From a virus: a stretch of DNA of 30,081 bases. The notes under the pieces were generated by a model. It had not been told where the DNA came from. It did not search any database and saw only the letters and a list, made by a program, of their open reading frames with translations. The position numbers were made by a program, and so were the translations under genes. The stretch covers positions 1 through 30,081 of the IMG/VR virus record IMGVR_UViG_3300045988_041245, one strand, 5' to 3'. How positions within the stretch are numbered: position 1 is the stretch's first letter; the number at the start of each line of letters is the position of its first letter. Below, piece after piece: positions 145 to 30,081 of the stretch.

Positions 145-151
145 AAAGTAA

Positions 152-174
152 GACGGCTCCCCGCTGGGAGCCGT
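152..174 (-). terminator. Hairpin ACGGCTCCC-N5-GGGAGCCGT; weak minus-strand terminator candidate
   Basis: Perfect 9-bp stem. On the minus strand it is followed by CTTACTTTTAG. No T-tract follows on the + strand. Confidence 0.3.
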
Positions 175-646
175 ATCGCGGTCCGGAGGCGAGCCAATCC
201 AAACCCCAAGGGATCGAAAGCCTAGAGCGATCGGATCCTAGCCTCGATAGCTTCGGGACTGCGGAGTGGAGCCATGGAATCTGACCTGATGCTTTCAAAG
301 CTCCTCCCATGGCTACGGGCATCGAGGTGGATGCCACCTGGTCTCGATGCTGCCCTTCGGGCCTTGGTCCCGATGCTCGGCCTGAATGGGCAAGGAGAGG
401 AGTCGGCCCGTGTCTGGCTTGGGTGGTTCTCTCACGTCTTGGTGTTCTCGATGCCTTTTCGGTGCTGTTTTGGGCTGGAACGTCACTTTTGTGCGTAAAT
501 GCCTTTCTGACGGGCTGTCGTGGGTGAGTCCTGACGAGTTATCGGGTTTGGCGTGTAAATCGGTCTGAGTGGCCTTTACGTGCGTTCTGGAGGCATGTGC
601 GATAAAAAGCGTGCGGGAGGAATGCCCTGGGATGCGTGGATGACGC

Positions 647-686
647 AAAAGAAAACCCCATCACGGCACGATGTGCTATGATGGGG
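647..686 (-). terminator. Rho-independent terminator-like hairpin on the minus strand
   Basis: About 13-bp interrupted stem (656-669/673-686). On the minus strand it is followed by TTTTCTTTT (complement of 647-655). No annotated minus-strand gene lies upstream of it. Confidence 0.5.
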
Positions 687-1152
687 TGAGTAATAATCGC
701 AAAATCCAAGTCTACCACATACATACTTGGGTGCGGAGGCACGACAACTCCCTAGCAATACCCCGGGCTCTAGGTTAATGGGGCGACCACCAAACCTGGT
801 TGATACACACGTTAGAGGTGCAGGTTCAACCGACCCAACAGACGATGGTGGAATAACCGGGGTGCCGACACCATCACATCAACGATGTAGCGCGATCTGC
901 TGGGGTATGCCGCACCAGTGGTAGTAATGCACCACCCTTATGACCGACGCCGTGCGAACGACCGACCGACGGAAACAGTCATGAAGCCTTAAAACGAAGC
1001 GTAAAAAACTTCGCTCTTAAGGCTTACTCTCTCTACCGGAGCTCGCTTCCTCCCTCAAGAAACTCTTCATGGCGGGTGTTGGTTGAGGCGAGGGTTGGGA
1101 CGTAGCGTACGACATGCCTGGTTGGTTTGCTTCGATGTTCTTCGATGCTTCG

Positions 1153-1161
1153 TGGTATACT
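1153..1161 (+). promoter_or_regulatory. Extended -10 promoter candidate TGGTATACT
   Basis: TGnTAnnnT pattern 35 nt upstream of the ATG at 1196. Same class as the other + strand promoter candidates. Confidence 0.4.
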
Positions 1162-1195: not shown

Positions 1196-1441
1196 ATGAG
1201 CGTTTACGATACTATCAACGACACTCTCGTCGAACGGTATGGCGTCCACTTCAGTGAGGAAGGCGAGCAGAAGTCGAGGAAGTTCTTCTCGGGCTTGTGC
1301 TTGAAGTTCGGTGACAAGGAAGTTATCGAGGCATGGGACACCGCATGCAAGCATTACGACAATCCGGTGACCGCGCTTTCGAAGCTTGGAGGCATTCTTT
1401 ACAATCGCAGTCTCTTCAGCTCGTTCATCGAGGAGGCCTGA
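1196..1441 (+). CDS. Hypothetical early protein (81 aa)
   Basis: ATG preceded by GAAAGGAA. First ORF after the non-coding region. No recognisable motif. Confidence 0.6.
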   Translation: MSVYDTINDTLVERYGVHFSEEGEQKSRKFFSGLCLKFGDKEVIEAWDTACKHYDNPVTALSKLGGILYNRSLFSSFIEEA

Positions 1442-1892: not shown

Positions 1893-2729
1893 ATGTCAGC
1901 AATCAACGACAACAACTTCATCTCAATCCAAGGATGGATGCGCACCCGCCTCAATCTCAAAGGCAACGAACTACTCATCTACGCGCTCATCTACGGCTTC
2001 TCACAGGACGGCAACTCAAGATTCACCGGCAGCCGAAAGTACATCGCCGAATGGTGTGGTTGCTCGCTTGACACCGTTGACAGGTCACTCAGCTCACTCG
2101 TAGGCAAAGGATTCCTCGCCAAATACCCACACACGGACCAGAACGGCAGCCGAGTCGTCGACTACTCCGCCATCCTGACGGTAATCGAAGCCGCCCCGGC
2201 TCACGCAGCCGCTCCGACAGCCGCACAAACCACGACTCCCCCACAGGCTCCGACACAGGCCCCATGGGCCAACACTACGAACGCAACCACCGAACAGTTC
2301 CAGACACCGACCTACGAGCCCCAGCCGCTCCTAGCCGAACCGGAACCAAAACCACAGCCAAAAAAGATACGCAAAGCCAAAAGCTTCGACGACATCATCG
2401 ACGCCTACACCAGAGACTCGACGACCAAGGAACTCCTCGGGCAATGGCTCCAGAATCGCAAAGCCAAGCGGGCCGCAATGACCGACGGAGCCATCAAAGG
2501 CAACCTCGACAAGCTCGACAAGTGCGCACAGGCGAGCCGCATGAACGTCAACGACTACCTCTCCGAGGTCATCTGCCGCGGCTGGGGCTCATTCTTCCCT
2601 ATCAACAACTACCAGCGCACCGGATACCAGAAGCCACAGCCACAGCCACAGCCAATCCAAAGCACCGCAGTCACCGTGTTACCAGACGGCCATGTCGCCG
2701 AATGCACCCCAGAAAACGGATGGTTCTAA
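1893..2729 (+). CDS. Replisome organizer / DnaD-like replication initiation protein
   Basis: N-terminal HTH (NELLIYALIYGFSQDGNSRFTGSRKYIAEWCGCSLDTVDRSLSSLVGKGFL). Pro/Thr/Ala/Gln-rich linker. C-terminal DnaD/replisome-organizer-like domain (LLGQWLQNRKAKRAAMTDGAIKGNLDKL). Sits immediately upstream of the DnaC-like loader. Confidence 0.7.
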   Translation: MSAINDNNFISIQGWMRTRLNLKGNELLIYALIYGFSQDGNSRFTGSRKYIAEWCGCSLDTVDRSLSSLVGKGFLAKYPHTDQNGSRVVDYSAILTVIEAAPAHAAAPTAAQTTTPPQAPTQAPWANTTNATTEQFQTPTYEPQPLLAEPEPKPQPKKIRKAKSFDDIIDAYTRDSTTKELLGQWLQNRKAKRAAMTDGAIKGNLDKLDKCAQASRMNVNDYLSEVICRGWGSFFPINNYQRTGYQKPQPQPQPIQSTAVTVLPDGHVAECTPENGWF

Positions 2730-2802: not shown

Positions 2803-3648
2803 ATGAACACCAACCTCATCGAGACCATGGCCCGAGAAGCAGGCCAAAACAGCCACTACGAAGAAGGCGACTACCTCAGCGAAGACGGCCTCCTCATGTG
2901 CGGCAAATGCCACACGCCAAAGCAATGCCGTTTCATCGCCACATGGGACGGCAAGGAGAAGAAACCATACACGCTCTGCGATTGCGCACGCGAACGCCGT
3001 GACGCCGAAGAACAGGCACGACAGGCGCAAACCCTCCGCATCGAAGTGAACAGGCTCCGCAAACTCGGCTTCCCCGACAGCGAAATGGCCGACTGGACAT
3101 TCGCCAACGACGACGGAACCGACCCAAGGACCACGAGCATCGCCCGCAAATACGTCGACAACTTCGACGAAATGAAGAAACGCGGCAAAGGACTACTCCT
3201 CTACGGTACCGTCGGCACCGGTAAGACATACGCGGCAGCCTGCATCGCTAACGAACTCATCGAACAAGGTCGCCCTTGCCTCGTAACCAACTTCGCACGA
3301 ATCACGAACACCCTCCAAGGAATGTTCGAAGGCAAGCAACGCTACCTCGACGACTTCAACCAGTTGGATCTGCTCGTCATCGACGATCTGGCCGCAGAAC
3401 GCGACACGGCCTACATGAACGAAATGATCTTCAACATCATCGATTCGAGGTACCGGAGCGGCAAACCGCTCATCGTAACAACCAACCTCACACAATCCGA
3501 ACTGACAGCCCCGGCATCCGTCGACAGACGCCGCGTCTATTCACGACTATTCGAAATGTGCGTCCCAGTCGAAGTAAACGGCATCGACAGGCGAGGAAAG
3601 AAACTCAACGACGACTCGGCCGATATGAAAAGACTCCTCGGCCTCTGA
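2803..3648 (+). CDS. DnaC/IstB-like AAA+ helicase loader
   Basis: Walker A GTVGTGKT, Walker B LLVIDDL, and SGKPLIVTTNL. N-terminal CxxC...CxC cysteines. Confidence 0.85.
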   Translation: MNTNLIETMAREAGQNSHYEEGDYLSEDGLLMCGKCHTPKQCRFIATWDGKEKKPYTLCDCARERRDAEEQARQAQTLRIEVNRLRKLGFPDSEMADWTFANDDGTDPRTTSIARKYVDNFDEMKKRGKGLLLYGTVGTGKTYAAACIANELIEQGRPCLVTNFARITNTLQGMFEGKQRYLDDFNQLDLLVIDDLAAERDTAYMNEMIFNIIDSRYRSGKPLIVTTNLTQSELTAPASVDRRRVYSRLFEMCVPVEVNGIDRRGKKLNDDSADMKRLLGL

Positions 3649-3657
3649 TAGAACCAA

Positions 3658-3690
3658 GGCGACACGTGCGAAAAGCGTGCCGCCTTTTTT
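3658..3690 (+). terminator. Rho-independent terminator
   Basis: Stem GGCGACACG/CGTGCCGCC (one A.C mismatch), 9-nt loop, T6 tail. Starts 10 nt after the loader stop codon. Confidence 0.75.
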
Positions 3691-3698
3691 GTTCCCCT

Positions 3699-3729
3699 CG
3701 GCGTGTCGCATCTCGTAACCGGGTATAGT
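3699..3729 (+). promoter_or_regulatory. CGGCGTGTCG motif + -10 candidate TATAGT
   Basis: CGGCGTGTCG at 3699-3708, TATAGT at 3724-3729, ATATCA at 3735-3740. Upstream of the ATG at 3785. Confidence 0.4.
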
Positions 3730-3784
3730 GTTAAATATCAGGCAAGGGAAACACCAAGCCACAGAAAAGAAAAGGAAACCAAAA

Positions 3785-4084
3785 ATGAGCAACCACACAC
3801 CCCTGAAAACCTTATTCGCCGCGCTCCACGGAAGCCTCCCATACGAATACGACGAGAAATACTTCAACGGCTCAGGACTGGAAGACGCCATCATAATCAG
3901 CAAAACAAGCTCGGAACGCTACATATACATCACCGCAAACATGCCCGACGACAACGCCATCTTCGACCTGACCCTATATGGCGACACCATCGACGACGAC
4001 CCAATCGAAATATGCCAATGGGACCCCGACGACCCGGACCTCACCCTCACGGCCCTCATCGCCCACATCGAAAAAACTCTCTGA
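3785..4084 (+). CDS. Small acidic hypothetical protein (99 aa)
   Basis: ATG preceded by GAAAAGGAAACC. Asp/Glu-rich (DDDPIEICQWDPDDPD). I trimmed the start relative to track ORF 3728..4084. Confidence 0.6.
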   Translation: MSNHTPLKTLFAALHGSLPYEYDEKYFNGSGLEDAIIISKTSSERYIYITANMPDDNAIFDLTLYGDTIDDDPIEICQWDPDDPDLTLTALIAHIEKTL

Positions 4085-4101
4085 CAAGAAAAGGAACAAA
4101 A

Positions 4102-4392
4102 ATGAACCTCGAACCGAACGCATTCACCACCGAAATTTCCAACACGCTAGCCGCCACCGGGAAAAACTACTTGGTAGAAACCATCAACCTCGTCGACAGC
4201 GAGACCTCATGCGAAATTACCAAACACGGCTCAACCAGGAAACTGTACATCACACCAGTCGAAGACGGCCTAATCGACATGGTCCTATTCAACGAAAAAG
4301 GAATCGCACTCGCAACATGCACACTATTCGACAAAAACGACTTAAACATCACCACTGAGGAACTCACGAACCTCATCACACTCTGCTTCTAA
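4102..4392 (+). CDS. Small hypothetical protein (96 aa)
   Basis: ATG preceded by AAAAGGAAC. It is the C-terminal part of track ORF 3703..4392, whose upstream part is Arg/His/Pro shadow sequence. Confidence 0.6.
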   Translation: MNLEPNAFTTEISNTLAATGKNYLVETINLVDSETSCEITKHGSTRKLYITPVEDGLIDMVLFNEKGIALATCTLFDKNDLNITTEELTNLITLCF

Positions 4393-4408
4393 AAGAAAAG
4401 GAAACATA

Positions 4409-4858
4409 ATGGGCAAAAAAACAAAAGAACCAATCATCGTCGACCTCAACGACGAAGACATCATGAGCTGGATCAACGAACTACGCAAAAGCCAACCATC
4501 AGCCAAAGAACGACGCAAAATCAGCGACTACAACTACTACCACCGCCACAAGGAGGAACGCGCCGAAGCAAACAAGAAATGGAGGGAAGAACACGCCGAA
4601 CAATACGCGGCAAAACAAAAGGAATACCACAGCAAGCCAAAAACCCTCAAGAAAAAAAGAGAGGCAGCCAAGGAACGATACCATACCGACAGTGAATGGC
4701 GTGAGGGAATGCTCGCCAGACAGAAAGCCAGATACCACGCGATGACCCCGGAACAAAAAGCCGAATACACCCGGAAACAAACCGAACGAGCCCGCATCCG
4801 ACGAGCCAAAGCCAAAGCGTCAAAAGCCGAAAACGAAAACAAGAGGGACCAGTCATGA
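4409..4858 (+). CDS. Highly charged Lys/Arg/Glu-rich protein with a reiterated (K/R)x(R)YH motif
   Basis: RBS AAAAGGAAAC. Motif reads YYHRHKEE, KEYHSKPK, KERYHTDSE and KARYHAMTPE at roughly regular spacing. Confidence 0.6.
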   Translation: MGKKTKEPIIVDLNDEDIMSWINELRKSQPSAKERRKISDYNYYHRHKEERAEANKKWREEHAEQYAAKQKEYHSKPKTLKKKREAAKERYHTDSEWREGMLARQKARYHAMTPEQKAEYTRKQTERARIRRAKAKASKAENENKRDQS

Positions 4859-5226
4859 ACGATAACGTGAACCATCCAAAGCATTACGCCGGCCGTAACA
4901 TCGGCTACGAATGCATCGACCTCGCACAACACCAGACATTCTGCGTCGGCAACGCGATCAAATACTTATGGCGCTACAAGGACAAGGGAAACCCAACCGA
5001 AGACCTGAAGAAAGCGTTATGGTACGCACGCCTCGCCCAGAAGAAGCTGGAACCCGTATACACAGAGGTAGGGGACTGCGAATCGATCTTGTACCTCCTA
5101 GTCGACTCCACAGCCGGGAACGAGCGCTCCGCATGGGTCGGGCTGACCTTGAACGACTGGCAGCGGACGGTGGAAGCACTCGACGAAATGATAAAGGAGA
5201 CACGAAATGAAGAGCAAGTTGGTTGA
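4855..5226 (+). CDS. DUF3310-family protein
   Basis: NHPKHY...ECIDL...GNAIKYLWRYKDKGNPTEDLKKALWYARL matches the DUF3310 signature. Its ATGA start overlaps the previous stop. Confidence 0.7.
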   Translation: MNDNVNHPKHYAGRNIGYECIDLAQHQTFCVGNAIKYLWRYKDKGNPTEDLKKALWYARLAQKKLEPVYTEVGDCESILYLLVDSTAGNERSAWVGLTLNDWQRTVEALDEMIKETRNEEQVG

Positions 5227-5383
5227 AATACCGATCGAACAACTGGCGATCGAACACTACCTATTCGACTTGGAATATCCAATCGAAAAAGTCAGCGAAA
5301 TATTAGACGTGGACAAAAACCTCGTCAAAGAAATTCACGACAAGTACATTAGATCGTCCATACCAGGAAGGAGCAACAAATGA
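5207..5383 (+). CDS. Small HTH-like protein (58 aa; below the ORF-track cutoff)
   Basis: ATG 5207 preceded by AAAGGAG. My own translation: MKSKLVEIPIEQLAIEHYLFDLEYPIEKVSEILDVDKNLVKEIHDKYIRSSIPGRSNK. Confidence 0.45.
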   Translation: MKSKLVEIPIEQLAIEHYLFDLEYPIEKVSEILDVDKNLVKEIHDKYIRSSIPGRSNK

Positions 5384-5550
5384 AGAAAACATCGAAAGAC
5401 CAGATCATCAAATGGTATGAGGACGGGCTGACGATCAACGAATTCGCCCCACTCATCCCGCAGTATTGCAGACAGGAAATTGAGGCCGTCATCAAGGAAT
5501 ACGAGAAGGACAGGGCATGGGCTCGAGTAGCAACATCCTTACTGCATTGA
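5380..5550 (+). CDS. Small HTH-like protein (56 aa; below the ORF-track cutoff)
   Basis: ATG 5380 in an ATGA overlap with the previous stop, preceded by GGAAGGAG. My own translation: MKKTSKDQIIKWYEDGLTINEFAPLIPQYCRQEIEAVIKEYEKDRAWARVATSLLH. Confidence 0.45.
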   Translation: MKKTSKDQIIKWYEDGLTINEFAPLIPQYCRQEIEAVIKEYEKDRAWARVATSLLH

Positions 5551-12406: not shown

Positions 12407-13078
12407 TCATTCAGACGTGGACACACCCATTTTACCTACCAAAGAAGATAGACGAGAAACCTCTGCCCTAAGCCCGTCCACCTCATTCATAGCCTCCTGG
12501 GCCAACCGTAAAGCGGCCACACTCAACCTCGGATAATCAACACCGGTCGGATTCCCGTCGGCATCATATTCGCAGAAAAACCCAAGCCCGGCATCATCCA
12601 AGTCCTCGGCAAGAAGCCCGATGACCGGCTGCGCGTCATCAAGCTTCAGATTCAGATCATCCTTGAACGTATACACTCTCCATTTCACCTGACGAAGAGC
12701 AACAACCGGGACGAACCCGTCAGCATCGTCGACATTCGCCACCGAATGCGTTGACGAACAGTCAACCCCCAACGTACCATCATAAAGACAATAAACCGGC
12801 TTCAGGGGACTCAACGAAAGCGGATTGATATACGCGTTCCGCACCCCGGTACCACCATGCGCCGGCACCACCACCGCATTCGACTCGCGATCGTCAGCCT
12901 GACTCTGCTCAGTAACCAACGATTCAAAATCCTTCTCAACGGTAGAAACACGTTCACCCAATCGACTGATGCTCTTACCGACACTAGCCCGCGACTCCCC
13001 CAGTTGGCGTCGGACATCCGCAAACTGGCGGGCGGTAGCATCAACCCCATCAAGCGAAAACCTGAACTTGCTTTGCAC
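12407..13078 (-). CDS. Tail fibre protein with a C-terminal S74-type intramolecular chaperone domain
   Basis: GTG start. N-terminal coiled coil. C-terminal VIGLLAEDLDDAGLGFFCEYDADGNPTGVDYPRLSVAALRLAQEAMNEVDGLRAEV resembles the peptidase S74 / chaperone-of-endosialidase domain. Confidence 0.6.
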   Translation of the reverse strand: MQSKFRFSLDGVDATARQFADVRRQLGESRASVGKSISRLGERVSTVEKDFESLVTEQSQADDRESNAVVVPAHGGTGVRNAYINPLSLSPLKPVYCLYDGTLGVDCSSTHSVANVDDADGFVPVVALRQVKWRVYTFKDDLNLKLDDAQPVIGLLAEDLDDAGLGFFCEYDADGNPTGVDYPRLSVAALRLAQEAMNEVDGLRAEVSRLSSLVGKMGVSTSE

Positions 13079-20689: not shown

Positions 20690-20980
20690 TCAGTCGGATT
20701 CTTTCATCAGTCCTGCGCCGATCAGGGCGTTTACTACCTGCTCTACCGTGCCAGTGGTCGGGTCTACGTGAGAGGCCTTGGTGATCGATGCAGCGGGACC
20801 AGCGGGACCAACGGGACCAGCGGGACCAGCGGGACCAACGGGACCAACGGGACCAGCGGGACCCTGACCCATAGTCACGGGTTGGCCTTCTTCGTCCACG
20901 AAGTTGATAACCTTTACGACGTTCAGGTTATCCTCGTGTAGGGCTTTGCTGCCGATTCTGGCGTACATTTCAGCGTTCAT
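20690..20980 (-). CDS. Small collagen-like (Gly-Pro-X)8 protein; head decoration/fibre candidate
   Basis: GPAGPVGPVGPAGPAGPVGPAGPA flanked by non-repetitive N- and C-terminal domains. Lies between the capsid and connector genes. Confidence 0.7.
   Translation of the reverse strand: MNAEMYARIGSKALHEDNLNVVKVINFVDEEGQPVTMGQGPAGPVGPVGPAGPAGPVGPAGPAASITKASHVDPTTGTVEQVVNALIGAGLMKESD
20794..20865. repeat. Eight tandem 9-bp units GGGACCA(G/A)C encoding the collagen-like tract
   Basis: Read directly. Confidence 0.9.
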
Positions 20981-20996
20981 TGGGGAATCACCTCAC

Positions 20997-22805
20997 TCAG
21001 GCCTTCGGCTTGATGACCACTGCGGACTTCTCCGCGTCCAGGCCGCCGCCAGCGTAGATCTCCTGCAGATATTCGTTGGTGTTGGTCTGGAGCGCGAAGT
21101 TCGTGAACGATTCGACGGAAGTGTCACCGACGAGCGCGTAGTGGGAAGCGGACATGACCACACCGGCCACCTTCTTGTCGTCTTCCGCGGTCCACCATTC
21201 CGGGGTGATGATCTGGGAAACGCCGAGTGAGCGGGCGAGCGTGTCGTCACCGCCGAGGGCGATGAATGAATTGCCGTTCGCGTCGGCGCTCATGAGCAGA
21301 TCGGCTACGGTGTCCGCGTTGCAGACGAGTACCTTGTTGCCCTGCGCGCGGACCATGTGGGAGGCCTTCACGAAGCCCATGAGCGGGGTTTCCTCGCCGA
21401 GCGTGTAGGAGCGGGCGAACTTCGTACCAGCCCAGTCGGGAGACTTGTCGGCTGCATCGGTGGTGATGGCACGGAAGTGAGCCATGTCTTCGTAGCCGCC
21501 GAGCACAACCTGACGTTCGATGGTCTGGATGATGTAGTTCGGCAGTTCGGAAAGGATGTATCGGAGCAGTGCGCCCGGCTTCTGCGTACGACGGATGTCA
21601 CCCTTGTTGAGGGTGATGTACTTGTACGTGTAGTCGGCGGTGAGTTCACGCTTGACGAAAGACGTGGACTGTTCCTTCTTCTTGGTGCCGTAGGATGCGA
21701 CCGGATAACCGTGTGCGCGGGTTTCGTCGGTCAGGCCGAGAATATTGCCGCCGATGGTGAGACGGTCCATACCGGTCTTGCGGAAGAGGTTCCATAAGCC
21801 GGAACCTCGCGTGTTGAGCGCGTCGCTGATGGTGGTGATGGCTTCGGTCGGGATGAACTTGTCTACGTTGGCCGTGTCGACGCCAAAGGATGCGGTGCCA
21901 GCCATGTTGCGGGACACGATGTCGGCCCACTCCTTGTGGAATGCTTCGACGCCCTTGTTGTCGTTGTCGATGAGGGTGCGTTCGAAAGCGGCCATGGCGT
22001 CCGGGGAGTCGAGCCACGTTTCACGGGAGTGGGAGAAAGAGGCGACACCGGACTGCTTTGCCTCACGGTTGGATTTGTTGATGATGACAAGCGGACGCTT
22101 ATTGGTGGACTGGGAGGGTTCTTCCGGTGATGTCTGTCCCTGGCTGGTCGAGTGGTCGGTCTGGTCGTCGATTGCTTCAGTGATGTCGGATACGGCGTCG
22201 GTCATGATGTCGGCGACGGACGAGGTGAGGGTTGCGGCCTCGTTGGGGTCGAGCTTGAACTGGGCGACGGTGCGTGCCAGCTTGGTCATGAGTTCATTGT
22301 CCATGGTGTCTCCTTTTCGGTTGTTGATTGAGGTGAATGCGGCTCGGGGATCGGCTCCACGATAGACGACGCTGATTTCTACCAGTTCGCCATTGTGGAT
22401 GATGCCGTCTTTGCCGGGCTGTCTGTTGAATTCGACGGTGATGCTGAAACTGTTGGTGAGGCATCCGTCGGCTGCGAGCTGGCGGACGCGTTCCCCGTTG
22501 TCGACTTCGCTGAGTTTTGCTTCGGCCATGAGGCCGGCGTCGGTCATCCAGAGGCGGGTGATGGTGCCGGCTTGAGCCTCGACTGATGGCATGTGGTCGA
22601 TGAGGAGGGGGAGTGAGAACCTGTCGGAATCATTGAGGTCTGACACGAGTTTCAAGGTCCCGTCGATGAGTGGGGCTTTGAGCGTGTCGAGGTCTACTGT
22701 GAGTCCGCCGCACATTACCTTGCCTGAGTTGGCGAGGAATGTGAGCATACGGCCCTTGGTTTCAGTGGTACCGCCGGTGTGGGTGAAGCTCTTTCGAGTG
22801 GTCAT
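20997..22805 (-). CDS. Prohead protease - scaffold-like linker - HK97-fold major capsid protein fusion
   Basis: The N-terminal ~170 aa carry S78-type protease-like motifs (PLLIDHMPS, SFSITVEF). Next comes an acidic/helical linker (DNELMTKLARTVAQFKLDPNEAATL...). The C-terminal ~330 aa are capsid-sized. There is no separate protease or scaffold gene. Confidence 0.7.
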   Translation of the reverse strand: MTTRKSFTHTGGTTETKGRMLTFLANSGKVMCGGLTVDLDTLKAPLIDGTLKLVSDLNDSDRFSLPLLIDHMPSVEAQAGTITRLWMTDAGLMAEAKLSEVDNGERVRQLAADGCLTNSFSITVEFNRQPGKDGIIHNGELVEISVVYRGADPRAAFTSINNRKGDTMDNELMTKLARTVAQFKLDPNEAATLTSSVADIMTDAVSDITEAIDDQTDHSTSQGQTSPEEPSQSTNKRPLVIINKSNREAKQSGVASFSHSRETWLDSPDAMAAFERTLIDNDNKGVEAFHKEWADIVSRNMAGTASFGVDTANVDKFIPTEAITTISDALNTRGSGLWNLFRKTGMDRLTIGGNILGLTDETRAHGYPVASYGTKKKEQSTSFVKRELTADYTYKYITLNKGDIRRTQKPGALLRYILSELPNYIIQTIERQVVLGGYEDMAHFRAITTDAADKSPDWAGTKFARSYTLGEETPLMGFVKASHMVRAQGNKVLVCNADTVADLLMSADANGNSFIALGGDDTLARSLGVSQIITPEWWTAEDDKKVAGVVMSASHYALVGDTSVESFTNFALQTNTNEYLQEIYAGGGLDAEKSAVVIKPKA

Positions 22806-27511: not shown

Positions 27512-28318
27512 TCAGTGGATGGTATTTTTGAGGGCGTTTGTCAGGGTGGCTTCTCCTAGACGCTTGTGGAGGAGGGCTAAGCCCTTGCGGGTGATGCGCA
27601 CGGCCGGGGGGAAAGCGAATTTCGTGCCGTCTGCTTTGGTGCCGTGCTTTTGGGACATGACCATTACGAGATGTCCGGCCATGCAGTGGCGGGCGGTGGC
27701 GTGCCATGAGCCATTGTGCTTGTAAATCCAGCCGTTGGCTGCCATCCATTCGCGTAGCTGCTTTTCGCTGATGGGAGTGCCTGAGTTAGAGAGGACCTTG
27801 GAGGCGTCGCGGACGAGTAGTCGGTCTTCCACGTCGGTGAAAGTGTCAAGGGCTTGAGCTTTTGGCTCAAGTTCCTTGATTTGCGCGTCTTTGGCCTGGA
27901 GCTGCTGGTTCTTGAGGTCGATGGTCTTCTGCACGATGAGTACGGCCTTCGCGAGAATGTTCTCGTACGAGTCCGTTTCGGCTGTCGGAATGTAGCCGCC
28001 TGTCTTACGGATAGTCGGGAGCACTTCGCGGGTTACCCACCTTTTGAATTTCTTTGCGGTCGGCAGCTTGGATGAGAGTACTAGCGAATAGAGGCCGGAT
28101 TCGTTGACTAGCCAACCTCCTCGTTGTCCCAGACTCGATAACGATCCGTTATTGAGTTTGTCTTCCGGGTCGACATGGTCGCTGATTGCTTTGCTGGCGT
28201 TTGTATAGTGAAGTACGTCGCAGATGTCCTTGGCGACGAACCAAGGTTCGCCAGTTTCGTCGGTCAGGATGCGCAGTGGCGAGTCGTTGAAGTTGAAGAC
28301 CTGGATTTCAGTATTCAT
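27512..28318 (-). CDS. Antirepressor-type protein (Bro-N domain + KilAC/ANT-like C-terminal domain)
   Basis: FNFNDSPLRILTDETGEPWFVAKDICDVLHYTNASKAI...GLYSLVLSSKLPTAKKFKRWVTREVLPTIRKTG matches Bro-N. Confidence 0.8.
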   Translation of the reverse strand: MNTEIQVFNFNDSPLRILTDETGEPWFVAKDICDVLHYTNASKAISDHVDPEDKLNNGSLSSLGQRGGWLVNESGLYSLVLSSKLPTAKKFKRWVTREVLPTIRKTGGYIPTAETDSYENILAKAVLIVQKTIDLKNQQLQAKDAQIKELEPKAQALDTFTDVEDRLLVRDASKVLSNSGTPISEKQLREWMAANGWIYKHNGSWHATARHCMAGHLVMVMSQKHGTKADGTKFAFPPAVRITRKGLALLHKRLGEATLTNALKNTIH

Positions 28319-29130: not shown

Positions 29131-29541
29131 ATGGAAGTCATGCTGGATAACGGAGCGTACATGCCGTCCCGAGGCTACAGGACCGACGCGGGATTTGATC
29201 TGCGTACGCCAAAGGCTGTGACGGTGCCGGCGTACGGGAGCGCGATAGTCGATACGGGCGTGCACGTGGCATTGCCGTGTGGATGCGCCGGACTGCTCGT
29301 CAGCAAGAGCGGACTCAACGTCAAGCACGACATCACGAGCACCGGGCTCATCGACGAAGAATACACGGGCAGCATCGTGGTCAAGCTCTACAACAATGGA
29401 GGAGGGGATCATGTTTTCGAAGCCGGTGACAGGATCACGCAGCTGGTCGTGATCCCGGTGATCCGCGAGTCCTTGGAGCAGGTCTCCTCCTTCCACCCGA
29501 CGGAGCGTGGCGACAACGGCTTCGGAAGCACCGGGAGGTAA
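29131..29541 (+). CDS. dut: dUTP diphosphatase (trimeric dUTPase)
   Basis: AGFDLR, SKSGL, GLIDEEYTGSI, RITQLV and GFGSTG are the canonical dUTPase motifs. Strong SD AAAGGAGG. Confidence 0.9.
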   Translation: MEVMLDNGAYMPSRGYRTDAGFDLRTPKAVTVPAYGSAIVDTGVHVALPCGCAGLLVSKSGLNVKHDITSTGLIDEEYTGSIVVKLYNNGGGDHVFEAGDRITQLVVIPVIRESLEQVSSFHPTERGDNGFGSTGR

Positions 29542-29544
29542 TCC

Positions 29545-29880
29545 ATGTGGAGCGGACGGAGCAAATACCACGCAAAGCGTACTACCGTTGACGGCATTAC
29601 CTTCGACTCGAAGCGCGAAGCCGACCGGTATCTCGTCCTGAAGAGCATGGAAGAGGACGGAGCCATCGAGAATCTTCGACGGCAGGTGCGCTATGAGCTC
29701 GTACCGGCCTTCGACGTGGACGGCAGGCATTACCGGCCGGTCTATTATGTGGCTGATTTTGTATACCGCGAGAATGGCCATGAGGTCATCGAGGACGTGA
29801 AAGGCATGAGAACGGACGTGTATAGGCTCAAGAGCAAGCTCGTCGCGTACCGGTATGGGATGAACATCAGGGAGACGTGA
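29545..29880 (+). CDS. DUF1064-family PD-(D/E)XK nuclease-like protein
   Basis: SKYHAKRTTVDGITFDSKREADRY...YVADFVY...IEDVKG...YRLKSKL matches the DUF1064 pattern. Confidence 0.7.
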   Translation: MWSGRSKYHAKRTTVDGITFDSKREADRYLVLKSMEEDGAIENLRRQVRYELVPAFDVDGRHYRPVYYVADFVYRENGHEVIEDVKGMRTDVYRLKSKLVAYRYGMNIRET

Positions 29881-29899
29881 CGGCTTAGGAGAGGGCATG

Positions 29900-29952
29900 G
29901 CCCCGGTCAGTCTTGGAGGAGGATCCTTCGGGCTGACCGGGGCTTTATTTTT
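29900..29952 (+). terminator. Rho-independent terminator
   Basis: GCCCCGGTCAG-N22-CTGACCGGGGC followed by TTTATTTTT. Confidence 0.8.
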
Positions 29953-30004: not shown

Positions 30005-30081
30005 TTGTCGTAGTACCCTACCTTGATTGTCGTAGTACCCTACCTTGATTGTCGTAGTACCCTACCTTGATTGTCGTAGTA
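30005..30081. repeat. 22-bp tandem repeat, 3.5 copies; identical to 1..77
   Basis: Read directly. Confidence 0.95.

Follow-up and report, generated by a model that had tools for sequence, protein, structure and literature searches.

We analysed a gene-free gap in a 30,081-nucleotide (nt) viral DNA (IMG/VR record IMGVR_UViG_3300045988_041245, positions 1 to 30,081; this whole stretch is referred to as the window). The first 77 bases of the window are identical to its last 77 (1-77 and 30005-30081), and the genome is therefore circular with a length of about 30,004 base pairs (bp). On the circular map, no credible gene was found from 29881 through 1195. From left to right, this gap comprises a hairpin with a T-run, an array of 22-bp repeats, an array of 12-bp repeats and about 1,050 bp occupied by short, overlapping open reading frames (ORFs). 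An earlier note, made from the letters of the window, had proposed that positions 145-1150 form one large structured RNA or complex cis-element of about 1 kb. Instead, related genomes show two modules that occur independently of each other. Module A lies on the left; module B, on the right, specifies a structured non-coding RNA (ncRNA) of about 420 nt, here called RNA-B, which is best read from the minus strand. The gap and its flanks are composed as follows (aa, amino acids):

29131-29541, plus strand: dUTPase gene, left of the gap
29545-29880, plus strand: gene of a DUF1064 protein, the last before the gene-free block
29897-29945, plus strand: hairpin and T-run after the DUF1064 gene
1-77, no strand assigned: 22-bp direct repeat TTGTCGTAGTACCCTACCTTGA, 3.5 copies, identical to the circular-contig overlap 30005-30081
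102-143, no strand assigned: 12-bp direct repeat ATACTCTAGGGG, 3.4 copies, units with GATACT or CATACT, iteron- or operator-like
146-645, plus strand (tentatively): module A, 77-84% identity to relatives, G/U-rich on the plus strand
152-174, no strand assigned: G+C-rich hairpin of 9 bp where module A begins on the left, about -18 kcal/mol on either strand, terminator-like on the minus strand with tail CUUACUUUUA
647-1063, minus strand: conserved core of RNA-B, about 420 nt, 19 consensus helices in a 23-sequence alignment
655-687, minus strand: predicted intrinsic terminator hairpin of RNA-B, U-tract UUUUCUUUU at 654-646
about 1064-1130, minus strand: variable stretch between the RNA-B core and the early promoter, 60-190 nt among relatives
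1131-1161, plus strand: putative early promoter region, read from the sequence
1196-1441, plus strand: ORF81, an 81-aa ORF, the first gene right of the gap
1893-2729, plus strand: gene of a DnaD/HTH_36-like protein
2803-3648, plus strand: gene of a DnaC/IstB-like ATPase

A further plus-strand ORF of 102 aa lies between ORF81 and the DnaD-like gene. The hairpin and T-run at 29897-29945, again read from the sequence and conserved with stem changes in relatives, are likely to represent the terminator of the upstream plus-strand operon and would mark the left edge of the non-coding block.

The interval 145-1150 had been described as lacking a credible ORF, and this description held. All its ORFs are short and overlapping, and the two longest have no Pfam match. 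Neither module contains a conserved open frame (23-28 relatives), and only 2 of 280 gap runs in the module A alignment and 24 of 495 in that of module B are multiples of three. Variable columns show no 3-nt periodicity (78, 85 and 89 per codon position in module A; 74, 73 and 77 in module B). That is, a conserved frame with such periodicity, named by the earlier note as an observation that would speak against its reading, was looked for and not found. Individual sequences do contain stretches of 60-140 codons without stops, and one might suspect small or unusual proteins, e.g. from the 111-aa minus-strand ORF at 313-648 or the 74-aa ORF at 274-498. However, no frame or codon periodicity is conserved, insertions and deletions are overwhelmingly not multiples of three, and these ORFs combine the lack of a Pfam match with the lack of a ribosome-binding site (RBS) and an odd composition. 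We consider protein coding in this region extremely improbable.

Relatives were recovered by protein-anchored and DNA-pattern scans, which yielded about 33 related genomes (lineage 1) from human-gut metagenome assemblies. A metagenome protein scan returned 14 loci, mostly duplicating IMG/VR contigs. Among the 42 matches of a gapped-pattern scan about 20 were chance matches, and the only new true homologues were the contigs L096 and L104-L106 (lineage 2); a third DNA pattern revealed no additional lineage. Four matches to a module-A 18-mer in unrelated taxa, and two to a module-B 17-mer (L034 and L036), were rejected as chance because the similarity does not extend beyond them.

Among these relatives the spacer between the DUF1064 gene and ORF81 varies from 493 to 1,701 nt. 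Module A (146 to about 635) is found in nearly all lineage-1 genomes with the 77-84% identity given above. About 20 of the roughly 33 genomes carry module B (about 640-1145), the remainder having about 55 nt instead, and in lineage 2 it occurs without module A. The single element of the earlier note thus had to be given up. Its proposal of a large structured RNA survives for the right-hand 420 nt or so, where covariation is confined, but not in its extent, strand or single-element reading. The gap is a mosaic of at least four parts (the two repeat arrays, module A and RNA-B) and not one giant RNA. Further variants illustrate its plasticity. In L063 (the same contig as L070), a natural deletion between short AAGCCTT..AAGGCTT repeats, one at the start of module A and one in helix 4 of RNA-B, removed all of A and most of B; the remnant fuses the 5' end of RNA-B to the left-edge hairpin (intergenic positions about 395-415). 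In five genomes (L038, L046, L047, L059 and L078), the left part of module A (window positions about 146-330) is present as a tandem duplication of about 345 nt, through which the spacer grows to as much as 1.7 kb.

Compensatory base changes, named beforehand as a check on an RNA, exceed the controls in module B but not in module A. RNAalifold gave a minus-strand consensus of 104 pairs on 19 sequences and subsequently of 102 pairs on 23 sequences. In the latter, 97.9% of the alignment cells form a standard pair, versus 30-52% in slid controls, in which pairing partners were moved by 1-3 columns. Double-sided changes were observed for 30 pairs (versus 15.1±1.9 in column shuffles, none of 500 reaching 30, and 4-7 in slid controls), and the covariation score was 0.208 versus 0.04-0.07 in the slid controls. 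At least one double-sided change occurs in 13 of the 19 helices. The consensus fold on the minus strand is also more stable than that of column-shuffled alignments (z-score, z, of -7.6). Folding of the single sequence 645-1130 gave z values of -3.4 on the minus and -2.4 on the plus strand. The earlier description of the whole interval as dense in helices is therefore borne out by energy for its right half, while the left half (146-645) folds no better than dinucleotide shuffles. With compensation beyond controls and no conserved frame, module B is a structured ncRNA.

The RNA-B core extends from GUUUCUUGAGGGAG on its 5' side (about 1063) to the position behind the U-tract of the terminator (about 647). 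Long-range helices (1061-1056/754-749, 1035-1031/817-813 and 912-909/830-827) close the structure. Three elements of the core are as follows:

844-875, minus strand: helix 14 (875-869/850-844) with a nested hairpin (868-865/860-857)
983-1026, minus strand: helix 4 (1026-1017/992-983), an invariant 10-bp stem that contains CUUAAG and encloses helix 6
786-800, minus strand: helix 16 (800-797/789-786)

Compensation is clearest in helix 14, where GAUGGUG/CACCAUC is exchanged for GGCAGUG/CACUGCC, 4 of the 7 pairs show double-sided changes in 9-10 of the 23 sequences, and 99.4% of its cells are paired. In helix 16, CGACCA/UGGUUG is replaced by CGGCGA/UCGCCG and by CGGUGA/UCACCG; double-sided changes affect 3 of its 4 pairs, in up to 10 of the 23 sequences, with 100% of the cells paired. 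Helix 4 had been noticed before as a stem at 983-991/1016-1024, and it is real. Its inner hairpin covaries: 3 of the 4 pairs of helix 6 (1012-1009/999-996) show double-sided changes, and in lineage 2 this inner stem is wholly replaced (CUACAGGC..GCUUGUAG) with pairing retained. Further double-sided changes were found in the helix 936-930/923-917 and in a small hairpin at 742-739/734-731. One more helix can be seen in a poorly aligned part, CCAAGU/ACUUGG (about 727/719), into which a variable hairpin is inserted. No pseudoknots were found; extra covarying column pairs were restricted to lineage-correlated singletons and to the unaligned helix at 727/719.

The hairpin at 656-686, pointed out earlier as a possible end of a minus-strand transcript, is real as well. 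Its U-tract UUUUCUUUU exists on the minus strand only, and its pairing is kept through compensatory and wobble changes. The hairpin has a free energy of -22.4 kcal/mol (z of -5.1), and its stem is helix 19 of the consensus, with 13 pairs of which 4 are double-sided. Its U-G wobbles would be C-A mismatches on the plus strand: 17 cells in the terminator are pairable on the minus strand only, compared to 2 on the plus strand only. In both lineages RNA-B ends in a G+C-rich hairpin followed by a U-tract, a predicted Rho-independent terminator. A minus-strand non-coding transcript ending at this hairpin is the best reading of the sequence.

Lineage 2 comprises four contigs of 35-37 kb (L096, L104, L105 and L106), found by gapped pattern and nhmmer. 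Here, RNA-B is flanked by an HNH-like ORF and by a small ORF for a holin-like membrane protein, antisense to both, and its gene adjoins the packaging module (HNH-like, TerS-like and TerL). Upstream of the conserved 5' end GUUUCUUGAGGGAG, at a distance of 2-5 nt, stands a TATCAT or CATAAT hexamer; at the 3' end, a 16-bp hairpin with U6 (TTTTTAATGT) was flagged as terminator-like in our scan. This anatomy, antisense to the neighbours and bounded by a -10-like hexamer and a terminator, is that expected of an autonomous gene oriented like the minus strand of the window, and would settle the strand of RNA-B.

L096 retains the gene order dUTPase-DUF1064-ORF81-DnaC (2823-5545, 32-63% aa identity); here DUF1064 and ORF81 are separated by only about 143 nt. 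L096 carries RNA-B at 12645-13066, about 9 kb from this block. From the synteny and the short spacer it follows that the two lineages are related, that the RNA resides at different sites, and that the block of repeats, module A and module B is an insertion in lineage 1. The RNA-B core is about 81% identical between the lineages, versus 32-63% for the shared proteins. It is more conserved than these proteins predict, and thus either under strong constraint or recently transferred. An RNA-based immunity or replication-control element had been offered as an option for the region beside the repeats. The location of RNA-B between lysis and packaging genes in lineage 2 weakens that option. The repeats themselves do adjoin the region as described, with 3.5 copies of 22 bp and 3.4 copies of 12 bp.

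In lineage 1, the RNA-B core is separated from the early promoter by the variable stretch at about 1064-1130. Its minus strand is rich in C and its plus strand in G, it contains CUCAC/GTGAG-type as well as GGGT-type repeats, and lineage 2 lacks it. In lineage 1, RNA-B may have its 5' leader and its promoter in this stretch. As DNA, 1066-1130 could be slippage-prone, or prone to form G-quadruplexes or R-loops. On its right, two direct copies of TTCGATG(T/C)T, 9 bp apart, occupy 1131-1149, where a -35 element would be expected. They are followed by an extended -10 (TGGTATACT, 1153-1161), the RBS GAAAGGA (1181-1187) and the ORF81 start at 1196. GTGGTATACTT is conserved in nearly all relatives. 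Taken together, 1131-1161 presumably works as the early promoter. The GTATAC core of its extended -10 is palindromic, and a back-to-back RNA-B promoter could therefore share it.

The conservation of module A equals that of the neighbouring genes and speaks for a function. Its plus-strand RNAalifold consensus has 96 pairs, of which 9 are double-sided, each in 1-2 sequences, versus 4-10 in slid controls. Nearly all of its variation is one-sided (G-C to G-U and A-U to G-U). A G/U-rich strand tolerates such changes trivially. Compared to column shuffles, the consensus fold reached z values of -6.3 on the plus and -2.2 on the minus strand. At 352-362, a cUUCGg hairpin has one compensatory variant (GCAC..GUGC in L046) and a UACG variant (L044). 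The helices that the earlier note held to be specific for the plus strand fall into module A and have no compensatory support. Of the helices listed in that note, 268-277/307-316 and 491-503/571-583 do persist as conserved inverted repeats, but without double-sided changes, and the latter, described as a 13-bp helix, contains a U-C mismatch at 500/574 in the window itself. The 'two-tier hairpin' at 319-350 is broken in several relatives by GCATGGAG or GCAAGGAGG variants. Of the recurring motif, the enrichment is genuine (TCGATGC occurs 13 times in the window versus 5.9±2.4 expected, with 4 occurrences in 319-1148), whereas the copy at 366 is not conserved. CTCGATGC motifs are located in module A at 319 (inverted), 343 and 447, and are similar to the pair of copies directly beside the early promoter. 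Where the module begins on the left, a subset of relatives carries an A/T-rich hairpin (GAAAGAAAGAU..AUCUUUCUUUC) in place of the 152-174 hairpin. Two roles are conceivable for the 152-174 hairpin, either as a back-up terminator on the minus strand or as the stem-loop with which a plus-strand RNA of module A would begin. With low confidence, we suggest that module A may be a G/U-rich structured RNA or leader on the plus strand that starts near the 12-bp repeats with their GATACT units. A hammerhead-like CUGACGAG at 532-539, spotted by eye, was dropped since no Rfam ribozyme matched.

Phage 'morons' are autonomous promoter-gene-terminator cassettes inserted between conserved phage genes. RNA-B resembles them: it is present or absent among close relatives, has different insertion sites and its own terminator and, in lineage 2, is oriented against its neighbours and equipped with a -10-like box. 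It differs in that its cargo is a structured ncRNA rather than a protein gene, and in that no integrase was seen. Terminator, variable presence and two insertion sites are observed, while for the promoter there is the -10-like hexamer of lineage 2 only. On balance we think it rather probable that the gap holds two independent accessory non-coding modules, of which B is a moron-like minus-strand ncRNA gene whose product acts in trans. RNA-B would be read on the minus strand from about 1063 (in lineage 1 possibly from further upstream) to the intrinsic terminator at 687-646. It would be transcribed from its own promoter and accumulate as a stable RNA, encoded by a mobile and dispensable cassette. 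By analogy with ROOL and GOLLD, it might bind or sequester a host or phage macromolecule in trans during infection. RNA-B would then be neither a cis-regulator nor a replication element; its orientation and own terminator weaken a role as cis-leader.

Several observations weigh against this interpretation. In the window alone the strand would stay unsettled because the wobble test outside the terminator is weak (14 cells pairable on the minus strand only versus 8 on the plus strand only), and because the consensus fold of module B scores alike on both strands (z of -8.8 on the plus versus -7.6 on the minus strand). A promoter consensus scan of both strands, in the window and in lineage 2, detected no promoter. 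All sequences belong to one narrow phage group, so the covarying pairs may reflect few events and cell counts must not be equated with events. We infer the trans-acting role from gene anatomy only. For module A, there is no compensatory support, the percentage of paired positions equals the shuffle expectation, and the single sequence 146-645 folds like its dinucleotide shuffles (z of -0.52 on the plus and -0.41 on the minus strand). Its TCGATGC motifs and iteron-like neighbours fit a role at the DNA level equally well.

A purely DNA-level element would be an origin or regulatory region with iterons, CTCGATGC binding sites and ssi- or pas-like inverted repeats. The two adjoining repeat arrays and the DnaD-like and DnaC-like genes downstream agree with this, as do the repeat types, which seem to track the N-terminal type of the initiator, the enrichment of TCGATGC, of which a pair adjoins the early promoter, and the inverted repeats in module A, whose sequence is conserved without covariation. 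However, 30 compensatory pairs, G-U intermediates and 19 helices are the signature of a folded single strand, and module B has a Rho-independent terminator with U-tract. Its lineage-2 copies lie between HNH-like and holin-like genes, away from the replication genes. Since lineage 2 and deletion variants do without module A, this module is not essential, and we regard a DNA element as an unlikely explanation of the whole region. Quite unlikely, in our view, is one long structured RNA or leader on the plus strand that would begin at the 12-bp repeats, cross A and B and continue into the early operon, serving e.g. antitermination or controlling the translation of ORF81 and the replication genes. 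It would account for the plus-strand specificity of the consensus-fold signal in module A, for a plus-strand z in module B (-8.8) as strong as that of the minus strand, for the lack of a plus-strand terminator between A, B and the early genes and for the CCUCC-type sequences resembling an anti-Shine-Dalgarno at about 1047-1057 of the plus strand. It does not explain why A and B occur independently, why only the minus strand offers full pairing of hairpin 655-687 and a U-tract behind it, or why a conserved extended -10 lies between B and ORF81. Nor does it fit lineage 2, where B, remote from the early operon and antisense to the genes around it, has its own -10-like box and U6 terminator.

We also considered RNA-B as a cis or antisense regulator of the lytic switch or immunity, of the type of P4 CI RNA or P1 c4 RNA, divergent from the early promoter. 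In lineage 1 RNA-B indeed stands back-to-back with this promoter, an Ant-like gene is located at 27512-28318, and the proteins scanned, an incomplete set, included neither a CI-type repressor nor an integrase. Yet with about 420 nt and 19 helices RNA-B is far more elaborate than the known antisense immunity RNAs. It is not adjacent to the early promoter in lineage 2, is missing from about 40% of the lineage-1 genomes, and has no match to C4 or a related Rfam family; such a regulator is very unlikely.

Comparison with known families points to an RNA of its own kind. We searched the 4,227 models of Rfam 15 against the whole window at gathering thresholds, and against positions 1-1900 and the lineage-2 locus L106 at E ≤ 10. 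No family matched, including GOLLD and ROOL, which the earlier note had brought up as candidates. At E ≤ 10 there were three chance-level matches per search (E of 0.9-7), far below gathering scores. By this lack of a covariance-model match we rejected membership in GOLLD, ROOL, HEARO, raiA, OLE, group I/II introns, RNase P RNA, tmRNA, 6S, pRNA and C4. HEARO and omega-RNA are also excluded by the flanking proteins (dUTPase, DUF1064, the 81-aa ORF, DnaD-like and DnaC-like), which do not comprise IscB or TnpB. We found no description of RNA-B in the literature searched; RNA-B is thus a previously undescribed family of predicted structured RNAs.

ROOL and GOLLD (RF03087 and RF01998) are 'ornate' large RNAs of phages and prophages (PMC5737381, PMC12286853), in which they typically adjoin tRNA islands (PMC12286853). 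Like them, RNA-B is phage-borne and accessory, measures hundreds of nt, contains many covarying helices and has no partner protein gene. Unlike them, it is only about 420 nt long (versus about 580 nt and more than 800 nt), matches neither model and has DUF1064 and ORF81, or HNH-like and holin-like ORFs, rather than tRNA genes as neighbours; ARAGORN detected neither tRNA nor tmRNA genes in the 30-kb genome. Moreover, RNA-B is confined to about 23 gut-phage contigs of two related lineages, and no pseudoknots were found. With phi29 pRNA (RF00044) it shares that it is a phage-encoded structured ncRNA and, in lineage 2, its place beside the packaging module. It is 2.4 times longer, however, has no Rfam match and is carried by siphovirus-like phages with a TerL-type terminase. 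Many relatives do without RNA-B, which therefore cannot be indispensable to the packaging motor.

ColE1 RNA II and the non-coding ori transcripts known from some phages are examples of origin-associated or primer RNAs. The lineage-1 arrangement, with a long structured ncRNA beside iteron-like repeats and replication genes, recalls such RNAs, and so does the strong G-versus-C strand asymmetry of module A. We rejected an origin or primer RNA since the linkage fails: in lineage 2, RNA-B is about 9 kb from the replication block, and many lineage-1 genomes lack it.

To our knowledge, structured bacterial or phage RNAs longer than about 400 nt are few (rRNAs, RNase P RNA, tmRNA, group I/II introns, OLE, GOLLD, ROOL and HEARO), and each of them has historically proved to be a ribozyme, the core of a ribonucleoprotein or, recently, a self-assembling RNA cage. 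RNA-B might be the founder of a new class of large, stand-alone phage RNAs that work by catalysis, by assembling themselves into an RNA-only particle like ROOL and GOLLD, or by tightly capturing a host machine such as the ribosome or a defence factor, and that spread as a non-coding moron; this is tentative and rather doubtful. Its strong covariation, clean gene anatomy and occurrence in phages of what is probably an important human-gut genus make RNA-B a concrete candidate for structure determination and for functional tests (anti-defence, ribosome capture or packaging). If the moron interpretation is correct, RNA-B would be evidence that phage morons can consist of RNA alone.

The two repeat arrays to the left of module A are exchanged in their own way. 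Both occur as several unrelated sequence types among close relatives with conserved flanks, the short array in three (GGGATACTCTAG, TAGATACTCTAG and CTACTAGACCCTT). In the 8 typed loci, the array type goes together with the cluster to which the N-terminal (HTH) part of the DnaD-like protein belongs, which is suggestive of specificity pairs of iteron and initiator. The contig was probably broken inside the 22-bp array, and the true copy number may exceed that of the assembly. Upstream of the DnaD-like gene we noticed degenerate single copies of the repeats (GATACACTAGAG at 1752-1763 and GTGCCCTACC at 1779-1788), and a 21-nt inverted repeat (1821-1841/1848-1868) followed by TACTTTT. The sites at 1752-1875 may be autoregulatory sites and an attenuator or terminator.

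As to the host, the TerL protein is 50% identical to those of the Bifidobacterium phages BlindBasel1 and BlindUri1, the nearest cultured relatives, with which TerL alone is shared. BLASTN of window DNA 1-1250 against GenBank phages gave no match, and nhmmer profiles of module A and module B matched nothing in BlindBasel1. A scan of genome contigs with the module-A 18-mer revealed no prophage copy or host. The host is probably a gut Bifidobacterium, as suggested by the TerL similarity and the gut origin of the relatives.

The structural and packaging module consists of minus-strand genes at 14.2-28.3 kb (tape measure, protease-capsid fusion, TerL and the Ant-like protein). Two of its genes are referred to here:

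20997-22805, minus strand: protease-capsid fusion gene
27512-28318: Ant-like gene

Just downstream of the protease-capsid fusion gene lies a perfect tandem repeat of 8 units of 9 bp (CAGCGGGAC, 20791-20863). It is contained in a 96-aa minus-strand ORF (20690-20980) and, if this ORF is a gene, is in frame with three codons per unit.

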